Positions 4,314 through 30,994 of a stretch of 64,000 bases of DNA are shown piece by piece. Numbering within the stretch: position 1 is the stretch's first letter; every line of letters begins with the position of its first letter. The translations under genes were made by a program, and so were the position numbers. The stretch spans positions 38,121-102,120 of the IMG/VR virus record IMGVR_UViG_3300003322_000327; one strand, 5' to 3'. Source of the DNA: a virus. Below the pieces are notes generated by a model. It was not told the origin of the DNA. It searched no databases and worked only from the letters and a program-made list of their open reading frames with translations.

Positions 4314-4817
4314 TCAGTTGCTCCACGCGACCTTGGCCGCACGTTTGAAGGCCTGACGCTCGTTCGCGCCGTAGAACGCCTGGGTGCCGCCAGCACCGAA
4401 GTCGACGAGGGCCTTGTAGCTCTTCGACTCGTCACAGGTGCCGGCAGGACGCTGGGCGACGATGATGGAGGCGCGGCCGCGGGTCTTGACGACGACACCC
4501 ACCTTCTGACGACGGAACGAGAGGACGCCGGTCGTGCCATCATCGAAACGGACGCGGCGGTTGACCATCGTCTGGCGAACGTGCTTGCGCTTCGCCGGCT
4601 CGGCCTTCTTGGCCTTGGCCTTGGGTTCGACGACGGGCGTCGGAGCCACGACCGACAGCTTCGGCGCTTGACCCTTGACCTGCACCAGCTTGATCTGCGG
4701 GGCTTGCTTGCTCTTGATAGGCTTCGGGGTCGGAGCCTTCGGCTCTGCCTTGGGCTTGCCCTGCTTGGGTGCGTCGAAGTCGAAGAACTCGTTGAGTGCG
4801 TCGAAGCTGTTGGACAT
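4314..4817 (-). CDS. hypothetical Lys/Pro/Ala-rich basic protein
   Basis: 167-aa ORF, AGGAG SD; low-complexity PKAEPKAP N-terminal half. Confidence 0.7.
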   Translation of the reverse strand: MSNSFDALNEFFDFDAPKQGKPKAEPKAPTPKPIKSKQAPQIKLVQVKGQAPKLSVVAPTPVVEPKAKAKKAEPAKRKHVRQTMVNRRVRFDDGTTGVLSFRRQKVGVVVKTRGRASIIVAQRPAGTCDESKSYKALVDFGAGGTQAFYGANERQAFKRAAKVAWSN

Positions 4818-4860
4818 GTTGGAACTCCTAGTACGTTGTCGAGAGTGGATCGGGAACCGG

Positions 4861-4986
4861 TTACGCCGTCGCGTACAGGCGCTTGTAGAAAGCGTCCTTG
4901 AACTCGTTGGGCAGCGCTTGAAACGCTTCGTGCAGTTCGTGGAAGAGGTCGATCAGGACCAGATACTGCTTGTCGGTGAGCACCAT
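4861..4986 (-). CDS. small hypothetical protein (41 aa, MVLTDKQY...)
   Basis: ATG with GAGGGG SD, inside the longer ORF 4861..5193. Confidence 0.55.
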   Translation of the reverse strand: MVLTDKQYLVLIDLFHELHEAFQALPNEFKDAFYKRLYATA

Positions 4987-4996
4987 GTCGTTCCCC

Positions 4997-5275
4997 TCAG
5001 TAGGCCGAGCGCGAGCTGTGCGAGCGACGGGAGCTGTTCCTGACGTCGTGCAGGAACGTCGCGAGGTCGCGCGTGCAGTTCGTGACGTAGATGCTGCCCG
5101 GGCGCTCGTTGCGAACGCAGACGCCGTGACGATGCAGTTCGATCGTCTGGTCGACGCCCTTGCGCTCGACGCGGAGGACGTGCTCCGTGCCATCAGCGCT
5201 GATGCCGCGAGTCGCGCTGATGCCGTGCGCGGCGAGAACGTTCTTGATCGCGTTGAGCTTTTGAAGACGAGTCAT
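4997..5275 (-). CDS. hypothetical phage protein (MTRLQKLNAIK...)
   Basis: ATG at 5275 with AGGAG SD; first gene after the intergenic region. Confidence 0.65.
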   Translation of the reverse strand: MTRLQKLNAIKNVLAAHGISATRGISADGTEHVLRVERKGVDQTIELHRHGVCVRNERPGSIYVTNCTRDLATFLHDVRNSSRRSHSSRSAY

Positions 5276-5360
5276 GTTCGGAACTCCTGTGAATGTGTGA
5301 TGCGGGAATCGGGAAACTGCGCGGTGCCCAGTCCCTCCCCACGACCCCATTTTACACCGG

Positions 5361-5437
5361 AAACCGTCGAAAAACCGCGCTTCATAGGGGAAAACGGGCG
5401 AAAAACGCTCAAAAATGCTCAAAAATTGGGCATTTTT
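5361..5437. promoter_or_regulatory. phased A-tract array (intrinsically curved DNA) in an intergenic region, probably upstream of a leftward promoter
   Basis: A3-A5 runs start at 5361, 5370, 5391, 5401, 5411 and 5421 (10-bp register), followed by a T5 run at 5433. Confidence 0.6.
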
Positions 5438-5452
5438 GTTACAAATTGGACG

Positions 5453-5488
5453 AAAAAAGGCCCCTGCAACCCGGAGGCTGGAGGGGCC
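5453..5488 (-). terminator. Rho-independent terminator (minus strand)
   Basis: GGCCCCT...AGGGGCC stem followed on the minus strand by T6 (A6 at 5453-5458); downstream of gene 5565..6239. Confidence 0.7.
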
Positions 5489-5564
5489 GAAAGCACAGGG
5501 GTTCGGGGCCGTGAGGACCCCGCTCGGTCGTGCTAGGAGGAGACAGGGAGGACGTGCTGCGCGG

Positions 5565-6239
5565 TCAGCCGTTCAGCTCGCCGAGCTTGCTCTTGAGGAA
5601 GGTGCAGGTGCGATCCTTCGAGCGCAGTTCCTTGAGCATGTGCTCGACCTCGCGCTTCGTGAACCGCGCACGCGAACGGATGCGGTTGAGCGCTTCGACG
5701 TCGGTCTCTTGCTTGATGGCTTCCACGAACATGAGGAAGCCGGAGTCGAGGGCGTTCGGGTCTTCCTTCTCGGCCTCGACCATGGTCTTGTTGTTCTCCG
5801 AGAGCTCTTGCACCGAGACGATCTCGGCTCCGGAGTTCTGGATGCCACGCGCCGCTTGCGCTTCGTCGATCTGGCGTTGGCGGGCTTCGAGGCGCTCGCG
5901 CTCCTCGTCGGCGCCGTCTTCGGCCAGGATCTTGGCGGCACGCTCGGCCGAGATGAGTTCCATGACGCGGCTGTTGACCGCGTTGCGGAACTCGGAGCTC
6001 TCGAGCAGCTGCGAGCGCGGGATCTGGTCGGTGATGCGGATCGGCAGCCACGTCATCGGCAGGAACAGGTCATCGACCTTGGTGCCGTTGCGCTTCGGGA
6101 TGCCGATGTGGACCTCACCGGCTTGCTTGGCGCGGCTCTGCGCACTGGAGTTCAGCACCCAGATCGGCGCGCGATCGTTGCTGTCCTGCTCCAGATCGTC
6201 GATGGTGACTTCGTCTTTCGTGTTGACCAATGGGATCAT
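5565..6239 (-). CDS. hypothetical phage protein with a coiled-coil segment
   Basis: 224-aa ORF, GAGGT SD. Confidence 0.75.
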   Translation of the reverse strand: MIPLVNTKDEVTIDDLEQDSNDRAPIWVLNSSAQSRAKQAGEVHIGIPKRNGTKVDDLFLPMTWLPIRITDQIPRSQLLESSEFRNAVNSRVMELISAERAAKILAEDGADEERERLEARQRQIDEAQAARGIQNSGAEIVSVQELSENNKTMVEAEKEDPNALDSGFLMFVEAIKQETDVEALNRIRSRARFTKREVEHMLKELRSKDRTCTFLKSKLGELNG

Positions 6240-6324
6240 GATGTACCTCTATGAAATTGAGAATGCAGTTGCCTACGGTAGTGGTGCTATTGTTGGAAGG
6301 CGCGATCAGTGTCGCCCAATTCTT

Positions 6325-6621
6325 TTAGGTCTTGACCGTCACGAGTGTGTGTACCTCGTAGACATGTACGTTGGAACGCGCGAGGTAGCGATCGGGCGTC
6401 AGGATCGTGGCTACGAACTTGTAGCTCTCATCGAGCTGGTAGGAGTCCTCGACGACAGTGAAGACACGGTTCTCGGCGAACACTGCCTTGTCACTGGTCT
6501 CGAACCAGAGTACGTAGCCTTCGGAAAGGATGTAGCCAGAGCTCAGAAACTGAGCTCCGACCGGGAGCATGGCCGAGGTTTGACCGTGGTCCTTGAGCTT
6601 GACCTTGATGACGTTCTTCAT
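6325..6621 (-). CDS. small beta-rich hypothetical protein
   Basis: 98-aa ORF; MLPVGAQFL...LWFE...HVYEV pattern resembles a recurrent phage family (from recall, not verified). Confidence 0.6.
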   Translation of the reverse strand: MKNVIKVKLKDHGQTSAMLPVGAQFLSSGYILSEGYVLWFETSDKAVFAENRVFTVVEDSYQLDESYKFVATILTPDRYLARSNVHVYEVHTLVTVKT

Positions 6622-6974
6622 GGGGCTTGGGTTCCAGTAATCCCTCTCTCCCGACGATCATTCGTTCTGGCCTCGAAGGCCTGGAGTGCGGCCTGCATCG
6701 ATGCGATCGCACTCTTGTTGTACTCGGACGGGCACTTGGCATCCTGTCGCTTGACGCGGTCGATCAGGATCGCCAGCATGTGCTCGTTGGTGAAGCCGTT
6801 GATGCCGACCGATGCCGGGTTCCCGTTCTGGAACTCGATGGTGGTAATGAAACCACCCGACTCCGAGCGATGCTCGATGTAGTACTGGATGCCCAGGGCA
6901 TCGGTCGTCTGACTCGTGCTGATCTCGACCCCGTTGTGATCCGCGTAGATGACGCTGTTGGTGCCGGCAATCAT
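6618..6974 (-). CDS. tad1: Tad1-family anti-defence sponge (predicted cyclic-nucleotide/gcADPR binding)
   Basis: IEFQNG..NG...LAILIDRV...S..N..A...AL...RTNDRRERGITGT parallels the Tad1 pattern IKFQKG...HG...LLEIVRDRL...S.EN..A...EAL...R.EDRIERNVLGT; ATG at 6974 overlaps the upstream stop. Confidence 0.7.
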   Translation of the reverse strand: MIAGTNSVIYADHNGVEISTSQTTDALGIQYYIEHRSESGGFITTIEFQNGNPASVGINGFTNEHMLAILIDRVKRQDAKCPSEYNKSAIASMQAALQAFEARTNDRRERGITGTQAP

Positions 6975-7588
6975 TGCTGCTCCCGCTGACCCGGGTCTTG
7001 CGCAGCCCACTGGCGATCGGAGACCTCACGCTGCTCGGGCGGATCTTCGCGGTGCTCCTTCGCCATCCAGCCACCGGCCGGATCTTCGGACGGTACCTGC
7101 GGCTTGAGGTCAGGCACCTGCTCCACGTCGGTGCGACCTTCCGGTGGTTCGTTGCCGCGCGCCGGCTGTTCCTTCTCGGCCTTGTGCGCAGCGAGCGCAG
7201 CTTCGAGGTCGATCACGGCTTCACGCACCTGGTTCGGCACCTCGGTAGACGTCGGCTCGTCGGCCGACGCCGTCTGGTCTGGGTTGTTGGCTGCCGCTTG
7301 CGCAGCGACGTCACGCATCGCTTGCTGGTAGCCGAGTTGGTGACCCTTTTCCAGAGCGATGCGGGCTTGGCACTCGTGCGCCAGCGCCAGGATCGACTGC
7401 AGGTCGCTGATCACGTACTGCATGTTGCGGTACGTGTTCTTGGCGATCACGGCGGTGTGATCGTGGCCACGTGGCACGATGCCGACCGACAGGCCGACAC
7501 CGGGCTCGAAGTAGCCGATGAGTTGCATGAGCGGGATCTGCGGGTCCGGCGCACGCACTTGTTCACTTTGGGTTTGGTCGGTCATCAC
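6971..7588 (-). CDS. hypothetical protein with a disordered acidic C-terminus
   Basis: 205-aa ORF, AGGAG SD. Confidence 0.7.
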   Translation of the reverse strand: MMTDQTQSEQVRAPDPQIPLMQLIGYFEPGVGLSVGIVPRGHDHTAVIAKNTYRNMQYVISDLQSILALAHECQARIALEKGHQLGYQQAMRDVAAQAAANNPDQTASADEPTSTEVPNQVREAVIDLEAALAAHKAEKEQPARGNEPPEGRTDVEQVPDLKPQVPSEDPAGGWMAKEHREDPPEQREVSDRQWAAQDPGQREQQ

Positions 7589-22788: not shown

Positions 22789-24114
22789 ATGAGAGAACTA
22801 CCAGCCCCAGGCTACTACTGGGCACCAGCTGCAATGGAGCAACTCTACAACCAGTCGCTGGTGAAGAAACCCTTCGACGGTCCCTACGAGCCCCACATGT
22901 ACCGCAAGGAGTTCGAGGGCAAGGCCGCAGGCGTCCGCATCATGGAAGGCTTCGGATCGAAGATGGCGCACTCGGCGCGCATCAAGCTCAAGGATGCCTG
23001 GCATCCCGGTCGCGAACTCCTGAAGCGCACGCACTTTGGCCTCTACAACGCCCAGGACAAGGTGATGAAGCCTTCGCACCTGGAGCAGGCCGAGGCGCTG
23101 GGCAAGCTGTGCTATCGCATTCAAGACTCGGGTGGCTTCCAGCTCTTCTCTGGCGTCCAGGACTTCATCGACCCAGTCGAGCTGGCGAAGATCCACAACG
23201 TCTTCGCAGACTCCGGAGTTGGCCTCGACTTGCCGATGAGTCTGGTCGAGGACAAGCAACTCGTGATCGCTGGCGCACGCATGATGGCTGCGAACTCCGT
23301 GGTGCTGCAGCGTGAACGCACGACCAAGTGGGCGCTGATGAACGTGAGCCACGGGCTGACCCCTCAACTCCGCGCCACGTGGCAGAAGGTGGCCCTGGCC
23401 GATCCTCTCGACAGCCTGTGCATCGCCGGCCTTCGCGGATCGATCCTCGACACCGCAGTCGGTGCCAACCCGGTTGCGATCGCAGCGCACCTGCTGGTCG
23501 GCATGCTGTACCCTGCCAAGTACAAGCACTACCACCTGTTGGGACTCAGCTCCGTCATCGGCATGAGTCTCGCGGCCCTGATTGCCAACCTGCACCAGAA
23601 GGTCGTGACCTCCGACTCGACAACGTACCTGAACGGGCAGCAGTTCAAGAACTTCATCAACGGCACGATCCCACCGAAGGAAGGCAACTACGGACGGATC
23701 AAGTGCAGCTGTCCAATCTGCAACTTCATCGAGTTCGAGTACTGGATGGATGGCTTCCCGACGCTGATGCTGCTCCACAACGCCGAGCAGATCAACAAGG
23801 GTTGCGAGACGCTGAACGGCCTCGCCAAGGTCGTGATTGCTAAGAAGCTCAAGGGCTTCGAGGCTGCCCGCTTCTTCTTCAAGGCCGGGGTCGGAATCGA
23901 CAAGCGTATGATCCAGCCACTGGGTCGTGCCTTCGACATGATCCTGAACACGAAGAAGTACAGCGAGGCATGCGCCATCGACTACTCGGTGAAGAAGGTG
24001 CAGATGGGATCACTCTTCGGCACCAAGCCCGTCACCAAGGCAGACAACTCGAGGTTCGAGGGCATCATCAAGCGGTACGAGAAGTACCACAAGCAGAAGT
24101 TCCTCAAACCGTAA
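22789..24114 (+). CDS. dpdA: TGT-fold guanine transglycosylase (DpdA-like, predicted 7-deazaguanine insertion into DNA)
   Basis: DSGGFQ signature, LDLP, HLLG, SDSTT, CSCPIC...HN zinc site; adjacent to queC/queE/folE/queD. Confidence 0.8.
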   Translation: MRELPAPGYYWAPAAMEQLYNQSLVKKPFDGPYEPHMYRKEFEGKAAGVRIMEGFGSKMAHSARIKLKDAWHPGRELLKRTHFGLYNAQDKVMKPSHLEQAEALGKLCYRIQDSGGFQLFSGVQDFIDPVELAKIHNVFADSGVGLDLPMSLVEDKQLVIAGARMMAANSVVLQRERTTKWALMNVSHGLTPQLRATWQKVALADPLDSLCIAGLRGSILDTAVGANPVAIAAHLLVGMLYPAKYKHYHLLGLSSVIGMSLAALIANLHQKVVTSDSTTYLNGQQFKNFINGTIPPKEGNYGRIKCSCPICNFIEFEYWMDGFPTLMLLHNAEQINKGCETLNGLAKVVIAKKLKGFEAARFFFKAGVGIDKRMIQPLGRAFDMILNTKKYSEACAIDYSVKKVQMGSLFGTKPVTKADNSRFEGIIKRYEKYHKQKFLKP

Positions 24115-24145
24115 ATAGAAGCATCGCACCTAAGAAGGACCAATC

Positions 24146-25090
24146 ATGAATCCCAACGTCGTACCGTTCTACAGCCATCGCAGCCGCAGGTTCGAAGACC
24201 TGTTCGTCGAGACCCAAGAGCGTCTGCTTGACCTCGCCGGTCTCGATTCCAAGAAGGACATGGCGCTACTCGTCACCGGCTCGGGCACCCTGGCCAACGA
24301 GATCGTCATGAGCTCGATGTCGCGCCGTCCCCACATCGCGACCCACGGAGAGTTCAGCACGCGGCTGCAAGAGACCGCCGACTGCTACTGGGGTGGCGAG
24401 TCGGCGGATCGTGACTACAAGTTCGGCGTCCAGTTCGAGACCGCCGAGGCGACTCTGAACTACACCGACTCGTACTTCGCAGTCGACTGCGTGTCGGCCT
24501 TTCCGTTCTATCCGCTGCCGGAGAAGGCACGGATCATGACCACGGTCAGCTCGAAGCAGCTGGGCGCCGATACGGGCCTCAGCATCATCTTCATTCGCGA
24601 CTACCGCGAACTGCTGACCCAGGGCATCATCGACGGCTCCAAGCGCTCGTACCTGAGCCTGAATCGCTACATCCAGTACGCGCTCAAGAACCAGACGCCG
24701 AACACACCGGGCATCGGACTGATCGAGAGCTTGAACGAGCGCCTGAAGGTCTTCGACCCCGAAGCCGAGCGCGAGCGCATCACCGGCTACTGGCAGCGCA
24801 TCACCGATGCCATCAAGGCCAAGAAGCTGTTTGCGACCTTCACCGGCGTCAAGCCGACTCCGGTCATCACCTTCAAGGGCATCGGCGAGCAGCTCTCCGA
24901 CCTCGGCCTGTACTCGAACTCGGGCAACCCGCAGCTCTTCCTCTGGTCGGCGACCGACGATCAAGTCGATCTCGTGGTCCAGCGCATCATGGACTACGAG
25001 ATGCCAGAAGTCAAGTCGGTGCTGGGCACCGTGGGCACCGCTGTTCCCTTCGCAGCAGGGGTCGGCCTCTCCATCGGAGAATCGAAGTGA
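24146..25090 (+). CDS. PLP-dependent class V aminotransferase-like enzyme (PhnW/serine-pyruvate transaminase fold)
   Basis: VTGSGTLANE, HGEFS, VDCVSAF, SSKQLG (PLP lysine), TPNTP. Confidence 0.8.
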   Translation: MNPNVVPFYSHRSRRFEDLFVETQERLLDLAGLDSKKDMALLVTGSGTLANEIVMSSMSRRPHIATHGEFSTRLQETADCYWGGESADRDYKFGVQFETAEATLNYTDSYFAVDCVSAFPFYPLPEKARIMTTVSSKQLGADTGLSIIFIRDYRELLTQGIIDGSKRSYLSLNRYIQYALKNQTPNTPGIGLIESLNERLKVFDPEAERERITGYWQRITDAIKAKKLFATFTGVKPTPVITFKGIGEQLSDLGLYSNSGNPQLFLWSATDDQVDLVVQRIMDYEMPEVKSVLGTVGTAVPFAAGVGLSIGESK

Positions 25091-25752
25091 GCATCCTCGC
25101 ACATCTCAGCGGCGGCTTCGACTCCGCTGCCTCGACCCTCAAGGTCGCGAACACGGGCGTCACGTTCAGGACCCTGCTCATCAATCTGGGTCAGCCATAT
25201 CTGCTGCAAGAGCGCAAGGCGGCTGAAACCTTCGCCGGCTGGCTGTCGGAGAAGTATCCGAACTACCTCGGTCATCATGAACTGAAGGTCGACATGGCGC
25301 TCTCACAACAGGGCCAGGTCAGCGCCTATATTCCGGTGCGCAACCTCGTGATCGGTGCCATGAGCGCCAACTTCGCACTCGCCACCGGATGCGACACCAT
25401 CGCGGTCGGCAACAAGACGCTCGAACTCAGGCCCGAGGACCCGTACTGCTTCAACGACTGCAGCCTCGAGTTCTACACGGAGCTGGGCAAGCTCGCGACT
25501 TTCGCGTCGCAAGGGCAGAGCGTCCAGTTCATCATGCCACTGCTCGATCTCGTTCACGACAAGTGGGTCGAGGGTGTCGAGATCAAGAAGCGAGTGCCGA
25601 TGTCGAAGCGCGAGGTCGTGCTCTATGTCCAGGAGCAAGGGTACGACGTGCGCCGGCTGTGGAGCTGCTACGAATCGTCGATCCGTCCGTGCGGCAAGTG
25701 CCATCACTGCGCCGAACTCATCAACGCTGGCGTCTGGGACCTCGTATCATGA
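25087..25752 (+). CDS. queC: 7-cyano-7-deazaguanine synthase
   Basis: SGGFDS PP-loop, IPVRN, NDCSLEF, SCY...CGKCHHC. Confidence 0.9.
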   Translation: MSILAHLSGGFDSAASTLKVANTGVTFRTLLINLGQPYLLQERKAAETFAGWLSEKYPNYLGHHELKVDMALSQQGQVSAYIPVRNLVIGAMSANFALATGCDTIAVGNKTLELRPEDPYCFNDCSLEFYTELGKLATFASQGQSVQFIMPLLDLVHDKWVEGVEIKKRVPMSKREVVLYVQEQGYDVRRLWSCYESSIRPCGKCHHCAELINAGVWDLVS

Positions 25753-26606
25753 CCATCATCCCCATCAAGCCGGATCGTGTGATCCAGAACGTCGATCGCG
25801 TCGTCACTGCGCGCGAGTTCGAAGGTCAGGACGACCTGTTCGTCACCGGCCATCCATTCCTCACGATCCAAGGTGAAGGCCCCCGTGCGGGTCAGGTCGC
25901 CTGGTTCGTTCGTCTCGCGGGCTGCAACTTCGGCGACAAGACCACATCGGACAAGAGCCCCGGCATGTGCGCCTTCTGCGACACGAGCTTCCAACTCGAC
26001 CAGGCCAACCAGATCAGTCCCGAGCGACTGCTCGACAACATCATCAAGGACCCGAGGTGGAAGCCGAACCATCTCCTGGTCGTCACTGGTGGTGAGCCGA
26101 CGCTGCAAGCACGAGCCCTGGCTCGCTTCCTAACCCTGGCGGCTGTGCCTTTCGACGACGTGCAGATCGAGACCAACGGCTCGCAGGCCGCGTTCTTCAA
26201 GCTCATCGATCATCCCGACACCAGGGACATGGTCGACAAGCTGATCGTGGTCGTGAGTCCGAAGGCAACGGAGATCACGGGCAAGTACACCCAGACTTCC
26301 AGGTCTGTGCTCTACGGCCCGCAGTCACTGACGGCACTCAAGTTCCTGCTCAGCGCCGACGATCCGTGCTACAAGGAAGTGCCGCTCTGGGGTCGTGAGC
26401 ACATGTCGAACGACAACGGTCCGGTCTACGTGTCTCCGATCGCGGTCTACAAGAAGCCGTACCAGGGCGAGATCAGCAGCGCCTGGGATCACGAACTGAT
26501 CGACGCCGAGGCCACGAGTCGCAACTACAGCTACGCAGCTGCCTACGCAATCGAGCACGGTCTCAACCTCTCGATCCAGCAGCATCTCTTCTGCACCATC
26601 CCATGA
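25749..26606 (+). CDS. queE: 7-carboxy-7-deazaguanine synthase (radical SAM)
   Basis: FLTIQGEG, FVRLAGC, CX14CX2C cluster motif, TGGEP, IETNG, VSPK; ATG at 25749. Confidence 0.9.
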   Translation: MTIIPIKPDRVIQNVDRVVTAREFEGQDDLFVTGHPFLTIQGEGPRAGQVAWFVRLAGCNFGDKTTSDKSPGMCAFCDTSFQLDQANQISPERLLDNIIKDPRWKPNHLLVVTGGEPTLQARALARFLTLAAVPFDDVQIETNGSQAAFFKLIDHPDTRDMVDKLIVVVSPKATEITGKYTQTSRSVLYGPQSLTALKFLLSADDPCYKEVPLWGREHMSNDNGPVYVSPIAVYKKPYQGEISSAWDHELIDAEATSRNYSYAAAYAIEHGLNLSIQQHLFCTIP

Positions 26607-26615
26607 AGGATCACG

Positions 26616-27290
26616 ATGAGCAAGACTGACCACCAACTCGGACTGCAGGTTCGAGATCACCTGATCGCTGCGGGCGTCGAAACTCCGATGATCCCGCTGA
26701 GTCACGCGCGTCCGCTCTACACTCCAGTCGGGCAGAAGGAGAAGATCGCGGAACACTTCGCGGCGATCATGCAGATTCTCGGCCTCGACCTCAACGACGA
26801 CAGCCTGGTCGAAACTCCGAAGCGTGTCGCCAAGATGTACGTGGACGAAATCTTCTACGGCCTCGACTACTCGAAGTTCCCGAAGTGCACGACGGTCGAG
26901 AACAAGATGCGCTACAGCGACATGGTCATGGAACGCAACGTCAGCGTCCAGTCCAACTGTGAGCATCACTTCGTCGTCATCGCCGGCAAGGCCCAGGTCG
27001 CCTACATCCCGAAGGACAAGGTACTCGGTCTCTCGAAGATCAACCGTGTCGTCGAGTTCTTCTCGAAACGGCCGCAGATCCAGGAGCGTCTGAGCGCGCA
27101 GATCTACCACGCGCTGCAGTACATCCTCGGCACCGACGACGTAGCAGTCGTCATCGAGGCCGAGCACTACTGCGTCAAGAGTCGCGGCGTCCGTGACGAA
27201 GGCTCATCGACCGTGAGCTCTCACATGGGTGGCAAGTTCATGGACCCGGCACTCAGGGCCGAGTTCATGTCATTCGTCGAACGAGCCTGA
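26616..27290 (+). CDS. folE: GTP cyclohydrolase I
   Basis: ETPKRVAKMY, NCEHH, GLSKINR, RPQIQERL, HYCVKSRGV. Confidence 0.95.
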   Translation: MSKTDHQLGLQVRDHLIAAGVETPMIPLSHARPLYTPVGQKEKIAEHFAAIMQILGLDLNDDSLVETPKRVAKMYVDEIFYGLDYSKFPKCTTVENKMRYSDMVMERNVSVQSNCEHHFVVIAGKAQVAYIPKDKVLGLSKINRVVEFFSKRPQIQERLSAQIYHALQYILGTDDVAVVIEAEHYCVKSRGVRDEGSSTVSSHMGGKFMDPALRAEFMSFVERA

Positions 27291-27324
27291 TCCAACAACC
27301 TCACCACACCACATAGGAAGCAAC

Positions 27325-28203
27325 ATGAGCACCGAACAAGTCAACGAACAGAGCCAGAACGAGCCCGTCGAAGCCGACCAAGGACTGGCGCCGCCGAAGT
27401 CGTACCCGCTTCTCAGCGCAGCCGAGCTGCAGCGCGTGCTGAGCCGCACCAGCGAGCACAGCTTCGCCTTCAACATCCAGCGCATGAACCAGATGTACAA
27501 GCTGCCGATCCTGACGGCGCCGACTCTGGAAGGTCTGACCAAGCCGAACGGCACGTCCGAGTCGGCCTCGAACCGCATCAAGGGCTTCCTCCGCACCCTG
27601 CACGACGAGGTGCTGGAAGGCAACGAGATCCTGGTCAAGCTGTGCCTCATCGAGTCGAGCCGTCTCGACACCGTGCCGGTGACGCTGGTCGAATGGGTGA
27701 AGACCATCGAAGAACGCCTCGGCATCATCCTCAGCTCCGAGTCGGCCACGAAGTGCCTCGAGTTCGCCGATCTGGTGCAGCGCGACTACGACGAAGCCGT
27801 CAAGGACGTGTTGGTCGACATCGCCGACTGGACGGGCGACATCATGGTCTACTGCCGGTCCGAGGCCATGAAGTTCGGCCTGCCCTCCGAGAACGTGCTC
27901 GAAGCCATCATGGGCTCCAACTTCACGAAGCTGCCCTCCGACGGCATCCCGGTCCACGACGCGAACGGCAAGTTCCTGAAAGACATGACCAACTTCGTGC
28001 CGCCCGAGCCGGCGATCAAGACCATGCTGTTCGGCCTCAAGCCCGAACCCACGGTCGACGCCGACGGCAACGTCAAGGCCACGGTCAGCCCGGCCACCCA
28101 GTCCTGGTTCGGCATCCCCGACTCGGACCCGACGGTCAAGATGAGCAACAACGTGTACTCTCCGGCCGAAGCCGGAACCAAGGACACGGGCTTCGTCGAC
28201 TGA
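27325..28203 (+). CDS. MazG-like all-alpha NTP pyrophosphohydrolase (PRA-PH/DR2231-like)
   Basis: DEVLE...DIADWTGDIMVY...IMGSNFTKL...NGKFLK...PP; ATG at 27325 with AGGAAG SD. Confidence 0.7.
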   Translation: MSTEQVNEQSQNEPVEADQGLAPPKSYPLLSAAELQRVLSRTSEHSFAFNIQRMNQMYKLPILTAPTLEGLTKPNGTSESASNRIKGFLRTLHDEVLEGNEILVKLCLIESSRLDTVPVTLVEWVKTIEERLGIILSSESATKCLEFADLVQRDYDEAVKDVLVDIADWTGDIMVYCRSEAMKFGLPSENVLEAIMGSNFTKLPSDGIPVHDANGKFLKDMTNFVPPEPAIKTMLFGLKPEPTVDADGNVKATVSPATQSWFGIPDSDPTVKMSNNVYSPAEAGTKDTGFVD

Positions 28204-28213
28204 GGACTGACCA

Positions 28214-28537
28214 ATGACTGCAGACCTGAAGCCCTTGGGTTGGGGCATCATCGCCAACAACGCGAAGGACAAGAAGTTGAGGTCCGGGGCCAAGGTCTGG
28301 ATCATCGGTGTCAACGGAGGTGGAGAACGCTGCCAAGTCAGAGGCCTGAATGTCCAAGGCCGCATGATCGAGAAGTACGTGGCGTTCTCCAATCTCAGCA
28401 ACTATCGACCAAGCGCGATCATGCCGACCCACACGAAGCACGAGGTGTGGCCGTTCGGTGGTCCGGATGATCGCGCTGTGGTGCAGGGCTACTGCGATTC
28501 GCTGAACAAGCGGACAGACAGTAAAGAAGAGTCGTAA
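28214..28537 (+). CDS. hypothetical protein (SH3/KOW-like beta pattern)
   Basis: 107-aa ORF, GAGGA SD. Confidence 0.65.
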   Translation: MTADLKPLGWGIIANNAKDKKLRSGAKVWIIGVNGGGERCQVRGLNVQGRMIEKYVAFSNLSNYRPSAIMPTHTKHEVWPFGGPDDRAVVQGYCDSLNKRTDSKEES

Positions 28538-28548
28538 AGGAGCAGAGC

Positions 28549-29181
28549 ATGGAATTCAAGTACAAGTCAACGAAGACCTTTCACCAGGCCTTTCCGGTCG
28601 CGTACAGGCAGTGGCGTGCGGACTCGCATTGCAACGTCGTGCATGGCTACGCGCTGTCGATCCACCTCGAGTTCGGCGCCTTCGACCTCGACGCTCGTAA
28701 CTGGGTCGTCGACTTCGGATCGCTGAAGCCCCTCAAGGCGCAGCTCGAAGACTGGTTCGATCACACGATGCTGGTCGCCGAAGACGATCCGCATCGGGAA
28801 GCGCTGCTCGCTCTCCACAAGCTGGGTGTCGCCAAGGTCACCGAAGTCGAGCGCACGGGCTGCGAAGGTCTGGCCGACTTCGTCTTCGAGCACCTCAACG
28901 ATCGTGACGCCGGCTGGCTCAAACTCTACGGCTACGGCGGTCGCGTCATCTGCACCAAGGTCGAAGTCCGTGAGACGGATGCCAACATGGCGATGCGGAC
29001 CCTGACCGTCAGCGACTGGGTCCGGTTCACGATGCCGACCGAGCAGAAGCACGTCCACCAAGGTGCTGTCGCGGCAGGCAGCACCAAACCAGTCGGCACC
29101 ATCGAAGACTTCGAGGTCGTCTGTGACAAGAACGGACTGACGGCCGATGAACGACTGGCTCAACAAGCGGAGCGAGCATGA
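28549..29181 (+). CDS. queD: 6-carboxytetrahydropterin synthase
   Basis: YRQWRADSHCNVVHGY, WVVDFG, FDHTML, CEGLA, VEVRET. Confidence 0.85.
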   Translation: MEFKYKSTKTFHQAFPVAYRQWRADSHCNVVHGYALSIHLEFGAFDLDARNWVVDFGSLKPLKAQLEDWFDHTMLVAEDDPHREALLALHKLGVAKVTEVERTGCEGLADFVFEHLNDRDAGWLKLYGYGGRVICTKVEVRETDANMAMRTLTVSDWVRFTMPTEQKHVHQGAVAAGSTKPVGTIEDFEVVCDKNGLTADERLAQQAERA

Positions 29182-29935: not shown

Positions 29936-30994
29936 ATGAACGAAACTCAAGTCCGCCCCGTCCAGACCCAGTACGAAGACATGATGCGCTTCATCCGTGA
30001 CCACGGCCGCTACAAGGGCGACCGGACGGGCACCGGTACCAAGTCGATCTTCGGCTACCAGCTGCGCTACAACCTGCAGCACGGCTTCCCGCTCATCACC
30101 ACCAAGAAGGTGGCGACCAAGCCGATGGTGACCGAACTGCTGTGGTTCTTGAAGGGCGACACCAACATCGGCTACCTGCACGAGCACGGCTGCCACATCT
30201 GGGACGAGTGGGCAGACAAGGACGGCAATCTCGGCCCCGTCTACGGTGCGCAGTGGCGTGCGTGGCCGGGCAAGTTCGCCGTCATGCAGACGGCCTCGAT
30301 GGCGAGTCCGGAACGTCAACTCCCGGACGGCGCCCGTGACGTCGTCAACATCGTAGGCCAGACCGGCGACCTCCACACCATCTATCAGGAGCCGATCGAC
30401 CAGATCGAGTGGGTCGTGAATCGGCTGAAGACGAACCCGGACTGCCGGCGCATCATCGTCAGCGCCTGGAACGTGGCCGAGCTGCCGAAGATGGCGCTCA
30501 TGCCCTGCCACGCGCTCTTCCAGTTCTACACGCACGAGCTGACCCTGAAAGAGCGGCAGGACCTGTACCTGACCGACGAGCCGCAGCCCGACTACGCAGC
30601 CGAGACCGACGAGGCGGTGATGCAGCACCTGCACAAGTTCCTGGACGAGCAGGGCGTGCCGCGTCGAGCCCTCAGCTGCCAGCTGTACCAGCGCAGCTGC
30701 GACACCTTCCTCGGCGTCCCGTTCAACATCGCGAGTTACGCGCTGCTGACCCACATGATCGCCCAGCAGGTCGGTATGGCCGTCGGCGACTTCATCTGGA
30801 CGGGAGGCGATGTCCACCTCTACTCCAACCACGGGGAGCAAGTGGACCTGCAGCTGAGTCGAGTGTCCGAAGCCTATCCGTTCCCGACTCTGAAGCTTCG
30901 GAAAGCGAACTCGATCTTCGAGTACACCCACGACGACATCGAGTTCGTGAACTACCAGCACCATCCGGCCATCAAGGCCCCGGTCGCGGTCTGA
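29936..30994 (+). CDS. thyA: thymidylate synthase
   Basis: [61 protein letters not shown]. Confidence 0.97.

Follow-up and report, generated by a model that had tools for sequence, protein, structure and literature searches.

The region analysed here, positions 22789-29181, belongs to a 64,000-nt stretch of viral DNA (hereafter, the window) within a 109,605-bp IMG/VR viral contig (record IMGVR_UViG_3300003322_000327), which has a GC content of ~60% and a completeness estimated by CheckV at 46%. Eight co-oriented genes, all on the + strand, make up a phage 7-deazaguanine DNA-modification cluster, read here from a metagenomic contig. While the cluster as such is of a familiar kind, a two-gene cassette within it is new, as is the chemistry that this cassette implies. 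The cassette consists of a gene for a miniature pyridoxal phosphate (PLP)-dependent, class V aminotransferase-like protein (AT) and, directly downstream, a gene for a divergent QueC.

The genes were screened against Pfam, PHROG and NCBIfam models, and the DpdA-like and AT proteins were also screened against PADLOC models. The cluster opens with a candidate DpdA-like DNA-guanine transglycosylase (441 aa; 22789..24114), recognized by a tRNA-guanine transglycosylase (TGT) fold in AlphaFold/Foldseek comparisons and by conserved family motifs. AT (P0002; 314 aa; 24146..25090), a miniature class V (fold type I) PLP aminotransferase-like protein identified by its family profile and model, forms the upstream half of the cassette. 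The downstream half is a divergent QueC-family PP-loop ATPase (221 aa; 25087..25752; PF06508, 72.9 bits) with a GTG start. QueE, the radical SAM 7-carboxy-7-deazaguanine synthase, follows at 25749..26606 (phrog_2076, 1.4e-28; TIGR04508, 1.8e-17), and a longer open reading frame (ORF) from 25389 is an over-extension of it. FolE, or GTP cyclohydrolase I, lies at 26616..27290 (PF01227, 205.8 bits). The next protein (27325..28203) is MazG-like, that is, nucleotide pyrophosphohydrolase-like, in its C-terminal part only (phrog_671, 1.8e-11, residues 189-262 of the long ORF), and a Pfam search with it returned no match. A 107-aa protein to which no function is assigned (28214..28537) matched nothing in Pfam, PHROGs or NCBIfam and had no tblastn match among the other AT-QueC loci. 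The cluster ends with a 6-carboxytetrahydropterin synthase-like QueD (210 aa; 28549..29181; PF01242, 57.3 bits; phrog_2389, 2.9e-38).

A Shine-Dalgarno-like AAGAAGGA precedes the ATG of AT. The AT stop and the QueC start share a GTGA at 25087-25090, and the QueC stop and the QueE start share an ATGA at 25749-25752, both of which were read directly. FolE, QueD and QueE together lead to 7-carboxy-7-deazaguanine (CDG) by an established pathway. Canonical QueC adenylates CDG, converts it to the amide with ammonia and dehydrates the amide to preQ0. This CDG/preQ0 synthesis set is clustered here, and each of its four proteins was matched by Pfam, PHROG or NCBIfam. The gene arrangement is not a product of chance; the identical order recurs in related contigs. 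An original prediction, made from the letters of the window, had given the identities and order of the genes, the extent of the cluster, the GTGA overlap between the PLP gene and queC, and the lack of a recognizable QueF, and all of these held up. Models for QueF (PF14489), GATase_7, canonical TGT and formyltransferase had no match anywhere on the 109.6-kb contig (~46% complete).

The flanks of every fetchable AT family member in assemblies, IMG/VR and JGI metagenomes were read and scanned with purpose-built hidden Markov models, which covered about 20 lineages. AT was found immediately upstream of QueC in eight lineages, namely the window (with a close relative), L001, L002, L003, L007, L012, L024 and L030. 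Stop and start codons overlap by 4-7 nt in six of the eight; the two genes are ~18 nt apart in L030 and ~0.5 kb apart in L024. The association also holds in the converse direction, as all viral QueCs that match the clade model at E<=1e-87 have an AT upstream. An IMG/VR search with the QueC alignment retrieved eight loci at 36-47% identity, every one of them with AT (8/8), and the next best IMG/VR QueCs are at most 27% identical and come from loci (L066-L073) without AT within 5 kb. Maximum-likelihood analysis groups the AT-linked QueCs in a single clade (support 92/97), apart from E. coli QueC, the Gat-QueC proteins of phage 9g and MiCath, a mycobacteriophage QueC and other viral QueCs. The same sister pairs (window and L001, L002 and L012, L007 and L024) occur in both the QueC and the AT trees.

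The genomes that carry the cassette are otherwise unrelated. L001 is T4-like with a gp45/gp44 clamp, L002 is a PolA/RecA phage, and L007 is small, with terminase and portal genes beside the cluster. Candidate transglycosylases in the AT-QueC lineages differ or are unrecognizable. As to possible hosts, the proteins of relatives suggest Proteobacteria. The partner of AT is QueC and not dpdA, and the QueCs concerned belong to one divergent clade that was never found without AT. The genome-wide co-occurrence check proposed with the original prediction is strongly positive in that AT lies upstream of one QueC clade in eight lineages. That prediction had placed the PLP enzyme with both dpdA and queC: its link to queC stands, and its link to dpdA does not, given that AT-QueC also occurs beside a different DpdA or none that can be recognized. 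No AT-QueC fusion protein was found, and the two longer members of the AT family are AT-methyltransferase and AT-HAD fusions. Complex prediction for AT with QueC gave a score of 0.05 against a mark of 0.32, a value that carries no weight for or against binding.

QueC of the window departs from the canonical enzyme in several respects. It scores 48.6 bits against TIGR00364 and does not reach the cut-off of 150.3; the clade as a whole scores 48-76 bits, and the QueC of L020, which is not linked to AT, scores 114 bits. Its sole PDB match at E<=0.001 is Cap9 (9nto). The protein is single-domain at 221 aa, the contig carries no GATase_7, and the tree places it outside the Gat-QueC clade, so that it is not a Gat-QueC. 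Signature motifs of canonical QueC, including the YPDC substrate motif, have been defined (PMC13329287). Window QueC has SGGFDS and a zinc motif, C194-x7-C202-x2-C205-x2-C208, whose first spacing falls one residue short of the canonical C(x)8C. In the AT-linked clade YxQxHxxE has become (Y/L)GQxY..(Q/E)E, which is one residue longer, and the equivalent of Tyr35, essential in E. coli, is Leu in the window. YPDC has become F/W-x-D-C/S. A clade-specific five-residue insertion lies right before this YPDC equivalent, in the stretch G-(S/N)-K-T-x3-R-P-x-D-P (QueC residues 108-124), where Lys110 and Arg115 are invariant; neither E. coli QueC nor Gat-QueC nor any other phage QueC in the comparison has the insertion. 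Special kinship of window QueC to the Cap9/QatC models was considered and rejected, as PADLOC models score it no higher than a non-AT QueC and NCBIfam likewise showed no special affinity.

A class V aminotransferase was also seen near QueC in another setting. In two bacterial metagenome-assembled genomes of different phyla, L098 (Bordetella sp., 4431-7454) and L117 (Ca. Sulfopaludibacter, ~4492-6684), a canonical QueC has a class V aminotransferase at a fixed distance downstream. The order in L098 is QueC, QueE, a full-length class V aminotransferase of 344 aa and a GNAT/FeeM-like acyltransferase. Class V PLP enzymes may thus have become linked to deazaguanine metabolism a second time, independently, or the adjacency may be due to chance.

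Three other contigs share the gene order of the window (PolA, primase, DpdA, ..., FolE, ..., QueD, thymidylate synthase) but not the content of the slot after dpdA. L020 (10345-15962), with a DpdA 78% identical to that of the window, carries in this slot a QueC from a different clade, 22% identical to that of the window, and directly after it an AsnB-like glutamine amidotransferase; it also has an R2K ATP-grasp gene and lacks AT. FolE of L020 is 71% identical to that of the window, and its intein-split QueE is 65-75% identical. Since DpdA, FolE and QueE are thus 65-78% identical but QueC only 22%, AT and QueC move as a cassette. L021 (10651-13221; DpdA 68% identical, QueD 80%) has a short QueC-like protein and two unknown proteins of 185 and 405 aa in the slot. 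In L022 (10380-11241; DpdA 57% identical) only a 167-aa QueC-like remnant is present there. Given this variation, the phage lineage swaps the step that handles the CDG carboxylate, and AT with QueC is one interchangeable module. Phages that are close relatives may thus differ in the deazaguanine derivative they make. The MazG-like protein has homologues in L020 and L021 and is kept in relatives without AT.

The relatives of AT are mostly viral; together they form a family of miniature class V enzymes of about 265-315 aa for which there is no Pfam model. AT itself had no Pfam match at E<=0.01 and no PHROG or PADLOC match; it falls below the gathering threshold of PF00266 and scores 39 bits against TIGR03301, for which the cut-off is 360.8. 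Its AlphaFold model (pLDDT 88.3) resembles SerC, PhnW and AGXT with a TM-score of about 0.72 (Foldseek TMq 0.67-0.75, probability 1.00), and a comparison of the family profile with the PDB returned class V aminotransferases, of which 3f0h was best (E 6.7e-20). The Schiff-base Lys (K137), the pyridine Asp (D114) and the GSGT phosphate loop (G45-S46-G47) align with the motifs of 3f0h and are 85-99% conserved. In an alignment of 162 representatives of the family, conservation reaches 99% at K137, D114 and T187 and exceeds 90% at F70, H11-R12 and R73.

AT thus has in common with SerC, PhnW and AGXT (PF00266) the fold, the PLP Lys, the Asp, the GSGT phosphate loop and an N-terminal HRS..F segment. 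This H-R-S..F segment aligns with its counterpart in phosphoserine aminotransferases, and in SerC this His-Arg pair touches the substrate phosphate. AT differs from these enzymes in being 45-90 residues shorter, in falling below the Pfam threshold and in belonging to a family that is almost entirely viral. In addition, SerC, PhnW and AGXT bind the substrate carboxylate in the C-terminal part, where no conserved Arg is apparent in AT. No Arg/Lys column exceeds 70% after AT residue 215, and Q263 is conserved at the site judged by eye to be equivalent to the substrate-carboxylate Arg.

Relatives of AT numbered 23 in a word-indexed search, and an exhaustive profile search yielded 193 clusters (at 50% identity) at E<=1e-30, rising to 769 at E<=1e-10, with lengths of 265-315 aa in nearly every case. 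The ESM Atlas cluster of AT is 91% viral, and strong members in 185,579 prokaryotic species genomes were confined to one contig. Among 50,697 deposited phage genomes no convincing AT homologue was found (tblastn gave one marginal match), and megablast of the cluster against deposited phages returned no match. The BFVD viral protein structures held no close counterpart of AT, the nearest, though distant, being NifS-like proteins.

Outside the deazaguanine loci, all other strong AT members with readable flanks adjoin some other enzyme that activates carboxylates with ATP. A RimK/MptN/Ddl-like ATP-grasp protein, for which a PDB sequence search gave no match, takes this place in at least 11 lineages; an ANL-type adenylating enzyme bearing a TSGSTG motif takes it in one bacterial glycan locus (L074). 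Loci of the ATP-grasp type nearly always continue with a small HAD phosphatase (DxDST, LTAR, YVDDF), and these phosphatases belong to one homologous family. QueC-linked and ATP-grasp-linked ATs are interleaved in the AT tree, and no residues that separate the two groups were found at the thresholds used; for these reasons both groups most likely catalyse the same type of reaction. Because indistinguishable ATs adjoin ATP-grasp and HAD genes in loci that are not concerned with deazaguanine, the substrate of AT is most likely a small common metabolite and not the base.

The conserved operon of AT, RimK-like ATP-grasp and small HAD phosphatase was read in L009 (7998-10468), L010 (7953-10439), L014 (7965-10436) and L015 (7027-9542), and it is also present in L033, L036, L039, L040, L044 and L083. 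It is surrounded, on viral contigs, by glycosyltransferase, methyltransferase, deacetylase and radical SAM genes. By analogy with the serinol-phosphate amidation of Campylobacter, this operon may encode an uncharacterized viral pathway of glycan or DNA decoration. Where the AT family is paired with ATP-grasp ligases and HAD phosphatases, it thus points to a second group of viral loci, so far unexplored, for modification or glycan decoration. Of the two fusions, P0145 (L074/L075, 4527-7368) joins AT to a HAD phosphatase of that same homologous family beside the ANL-type enzyme in a bacterial Wzm/Wzt glycan locus, and P0121 (L076, 1-2634) joins AT to a methyltransferase and is flanked by ATP-grasp and HAD phosphatase genes.

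Two characterized systems offer a precedent for the cassette. Cap9, a member of the QueC family, adenylates CDG, after which the primary amine of a protein N-terminus attacks in place of ammonia (10.1101/2025.04.06.647259). In the capsule pathway of Campylobacter jejuni, Cj1437 transaminates dihydroxyacetone phosphate (DHAP) to serinol phosphate, the ATP-dependent amidoligase Cj1438C joins the amine of serinol phosphate to the carboxylate of glucuronate, and the HAD phosphatase Cj1435 then removes the phosphate (PMC11800397). The arrangement seen in Campylobacter, a PLP enzyme that adjoins an ATP-dependent carboxylate-amine ligase, was found in eight lineages for AT-QueC and in at least 11 for AT-ATP-grasp.

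By analogy with these systems, we tentatively favor a reading in which AT makes a small amine, probably phosphorylated, that QueC joins to CDG, yielding an N-substituted 7-carboxamido-7-deazaguanine as a replacement for guanine. AT would transaminate a small carbonyl metabolite, probably a phosphorylated one of the triose-phosphate or phosphoserine type, to give a primary amine. The QueC-clade enzyme would adenylate the CDG carboxylate and accept the AT-made amine, rather than ammonia, as the nucleophile, so that the product would be the N-substituted 7-carboxamido-7-deazaguanine. The modified base would enter phage DNA either through insertion by DpdA or by assembly on DNA-bound dCDG, the TGT-fold DpdA-like enzyme presumably swapping a 7-deazaguanine for guanine in DNA. 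It is conceivable, although we would not yet bet on it, that guanine in AT-QueC phages is replaced by an undescribed N-alkyl-7-carboxamido-7-deazaguanine with a side chain that possibly bears a hydroxyl or a phosphate. The suggestion in the original prediction that the PLP enzyme may supply a substrate agrees best with what was found. The possible new base that was raised there may exist; it is a live, if unproven, hypothesis.

Several points weigh against amine ligation by the cassette. AT is only analogous to Cj1437 and not demonstrably homologous to it. AT-linked QueC retains SGGxDS, the Arg of (V/I)PxRN (IPVRN in the window), the Zn cysteines and the Tyr after the first Cys, and it could still be an ordinary preQ0 synthase. 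No QueC-type locus has a HAD phosphatase, and none was found anywhere on the 109.6-kb contig; this leaves the fate of the phosphate unexplained, and the amine is possibly not phosphorylated. The DpdA-like protein is common to relatives with other modules, and its base specificity is uninformative as to a bulky substituent. The AT-QueC cassette had no carrier among the 50,697 deposited phage genomes, a set from which records close to the window's own genome may be missing. Finally, because the contig is only ~46% complete, further tailoring genes may sit elsewhere.

The strongest alternative is that AT serves as a PLP-dependent deaminating or nitrogen-donating partner that feeds ammonia to QueC, in the manner of the glutaminase of Gat-QueC, GMP synthase or asparagine synthetase, in which case the base would be a known one (dPreQ0, dADG or dG+). 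PP-loop enzymes of the QueC superfamily often have dedicated nitrogen donors, such as the GATase of GMP synthase (PMC13329287), and many of the QueC matches in deposited phages are GATase-QueC fusions. L020, which lacks AT, has its AsnB-like glutamine amidotransferase directly after QueC, the translational coupling of AT and QueC suggests a 1:1 complex, and QueC keeps most of the canonical catalytic signature. However, the closest structural and sequence relatives of AT are transaminases (SerC, PhnW, AGXT) and not ammonia-releasing lyases, and transaminases release no ammonia. A supply of ammonia would also leave unexplained why AT is paired with RimK-like ATP-grasp enzymes, whose known relatives use the amines of amino acids, and with HAD phosphatases, and the AT-linked QueC clade is distinct from Gat-QueC. 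We consider this alternative unlikely.

A PLP enzyme might instead tailor the 7-substituent directly, on the free base or in DNA, either by converting a 7-formyl to an aminomethyl group, which would be a QueF-independent route of the preQ1 type, or by decarboxylating an amino-acid adduct. PLP-dependent decarboxylases are established tailoring enzymes in the hypermodification of thymidine in phages (PMC13458397), QueF was not found on the contig, and the shortened AT, with no conserved Arg in its C-terminal part, could have a site open to a bulky substrate. On the other side, no reductase able to supply a 7-formyl intermediate was recognized among the cluster genes, where the 107-aa protein is without any match, and an amino acid linked to CDG through its alpha-amine leaves no free amine for PLP chemistry. 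ATs with indistinguishable residue patterns occur in loci without any deazaguanine genes, and AT tracks QueC and not DpdA. Formyl/aminomethyl transamination and decarboxylation, the examples offered in the original prediction, are less supported on account of these ATs and of the missing reductase, and we regard direct tailoring as improbable.

A purely auxiliary metabolic role for AT, unconnected with DNA modification and with its place near queC explained by shared expression timing alone, is very improbable. AT does evolve faster than its neighbor, with 71% identity to the nearest relative compared with 96% for DpdA, but in eight lineages whose genomes are otherwise unrelated one AT branch corresponds one-to-one to one QueC clade, stop codons run into start codons, and the same sister pairs appear in both trees. 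Least credible of all is a sulfur relay like that of IscS with ThiI or MnmA, or of the LarE type, to a thio-carboxylate or thioamide deazaguanine: although a class V fold stands beside a PP-loop ATPase, the sulfur-inserting LarE is a member of the QueC superfamily (PMC13329287) and NifS-like proteins are the nearest, if distant, viral structures to AT, the reading of AT as a cysteine desulfurase (NifS/IscS/SufS) was rejected because no Cys, and hence no persulfide-forming one, is conserved among the 162 AT family sequences (the most Cys-rich column reaches 40%), desulfurases are absent from the PDB profile matches, the top structural matches are transaminases, and ATP-grasp and HAD partners do not agree with sulfur transfer.

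In the literature full text searched, no PLP enzyme or aminotransferase is described together with DpdA, QueC, preQ0 or 7-deazaguanine modification, and none is mentioned in the 2019 and 2023 papers on phage deazaguanines or in the 2026 survey of the QueC family, which agrees with the earlier statement that a PLP enzyme lies outside the described pathways. The AT family (~190 clusters at 50% identity, E<=1e-30) is likewise undescribed in the literature searched. With the phage 7-deazaguanine clusters on record (Hutinet 2019, PMC6884629; Cui 2023, PMC10516641) the window shares the precursor genes, a TGT-fold candidate and a location among replication and nucleotide-metabolism genes. Those clusters tailor the base via QueF, via ArcS/Gat-QueC/QueF-L or via DpdL/M/N, without a PLP enzyme, whereas the window has AT and a QueC of a separate clade. 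Both the window and the Gat-QueC of phage 9g-like viruses (dG+) tie a nitrogen-handling enzyme physically to QueC in a phage deazaguanine cluster, but in Gat-QueC this enzyme is a class II glutaminase fused to QueC, in the window it is a PLP enzyme with a gene of its own, and the two QueC parts belong to different clades.

Window QueC, Cap9 and QatC are all ATP-pyrophosphatases of the QueC family, and Cap9 is the established case of a non-ammonia amine attacking CDG-AMP. Cap9 and QatC act on the N-terminus of a protein as parts of bacterial defence systems (10.1101/2025.04.06.647259, PMC13279940, PMC13329287), whereas the window presents a phage DNA-modification context and a proposed small-molecule amine. 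As for the Campylobacter jejuni capsule locus (Cj1437, Cj1436, Cj1438C, Cj1435; PMC11800397), the ATP-grasp branch of the AT family has all three parts in one operon. Compared with Cj1437, Cj1438C and Cj1435, the window has QueC as the ligase and a nucleobase as the presumed carboxylate, and the HAD phosphatase is absent.

AT-QueC constitutes a testable two-gene module that predicts a base of a ninth type and a new activity of the QueC scaffold. 7-Deazaguanine bases are a major means by which phages protect their DNA against CRISPR, DNA glycosylases and restriction enzymes. Eight 7-deazaguanine derivatives are known, and each new one brought new enzymology. If amine ligation by the cassette is correct, protein deazaguanylation would gain its first counterpart for a small molecule, and DNA modification with deazaguanines its first step that depends on PLP, by a two-enzyme route in which a miniature PLP transaminase provides the amine and a retooled QueC ligates it to CDG. 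Should the ligase accept varied amines, it could become a tool for placing functional handles on DNA via base exchange of the DpdA type.

The DpdA-like protein had no Pfam, PHROG, NCBIfam or PADLOC match, including the Pfam TGT and DUF6610 models. The best 50 PDB matches of its AlphaFold model (pLDDT 87.7) in Foldseek all belong to the TGT family and include DpdA (7ui4). The family retains DSGGFQ (D113-Q118), D276-S277 and a Zn site of C306/C308/C311/H330, so that TGT fold, catalytic aspartates and Zn site are all present. The protein is not assigned to any one of DpdA1-4: DUF6610 gave no match and, unlike the enzymes of known phage clusters, it had tblastn matches (E<=5) in deposited phages only in ~20 jumbo phages. 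Its nearest deposited relatives are TGT-like proteins of these jumbo phages, at 22-28% identity. They come from ~200-260-kb phages of Pseudomonas, Xanthomonas, Burkholderia, Achromobacter and Vibrio and are mostly annotated as hypothetical. An example of a closest relative is Peetri_00102 of Pseudomonas phage vB_PpuM-Peetri (L082, 8854-10224), which gave no functional lead because the gene is not within an annotated deazaguanine cluster. Neighboring proteins in L002 and L003 were considered as DpdA candidates and rejected; profile comparison with the window DpdA family gave probabilities of 6% and 0.6%, too weak to use, and a PDB sequence search yielded a ParB domain only. In the nearest relative of the window across 22789-25090 (the contig of P0005/P0027), the DpdA-like protein is 96% identical and the adjacent AT 71%, and by these identities AT evolves much faster than its neighbor.

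Inteins and homing endonucleases break both modification and replication genes in these loci. QueE of L020 (12507-14429) is 640 aa long with Hint and NUMOD3 domains, FolE of L012 (6382-7953) is 523 aa long with an intein/LAGLIDADG insert, and PolA of L002 (1-2009) contains an intein. Just downstream of the cluster in the window, at 29936-30994, lies a thymidylate synthase of 352 aa, which contains sizeable insertions, as its match, over residues 12-352, spans a Pfam profile of 266 positions.

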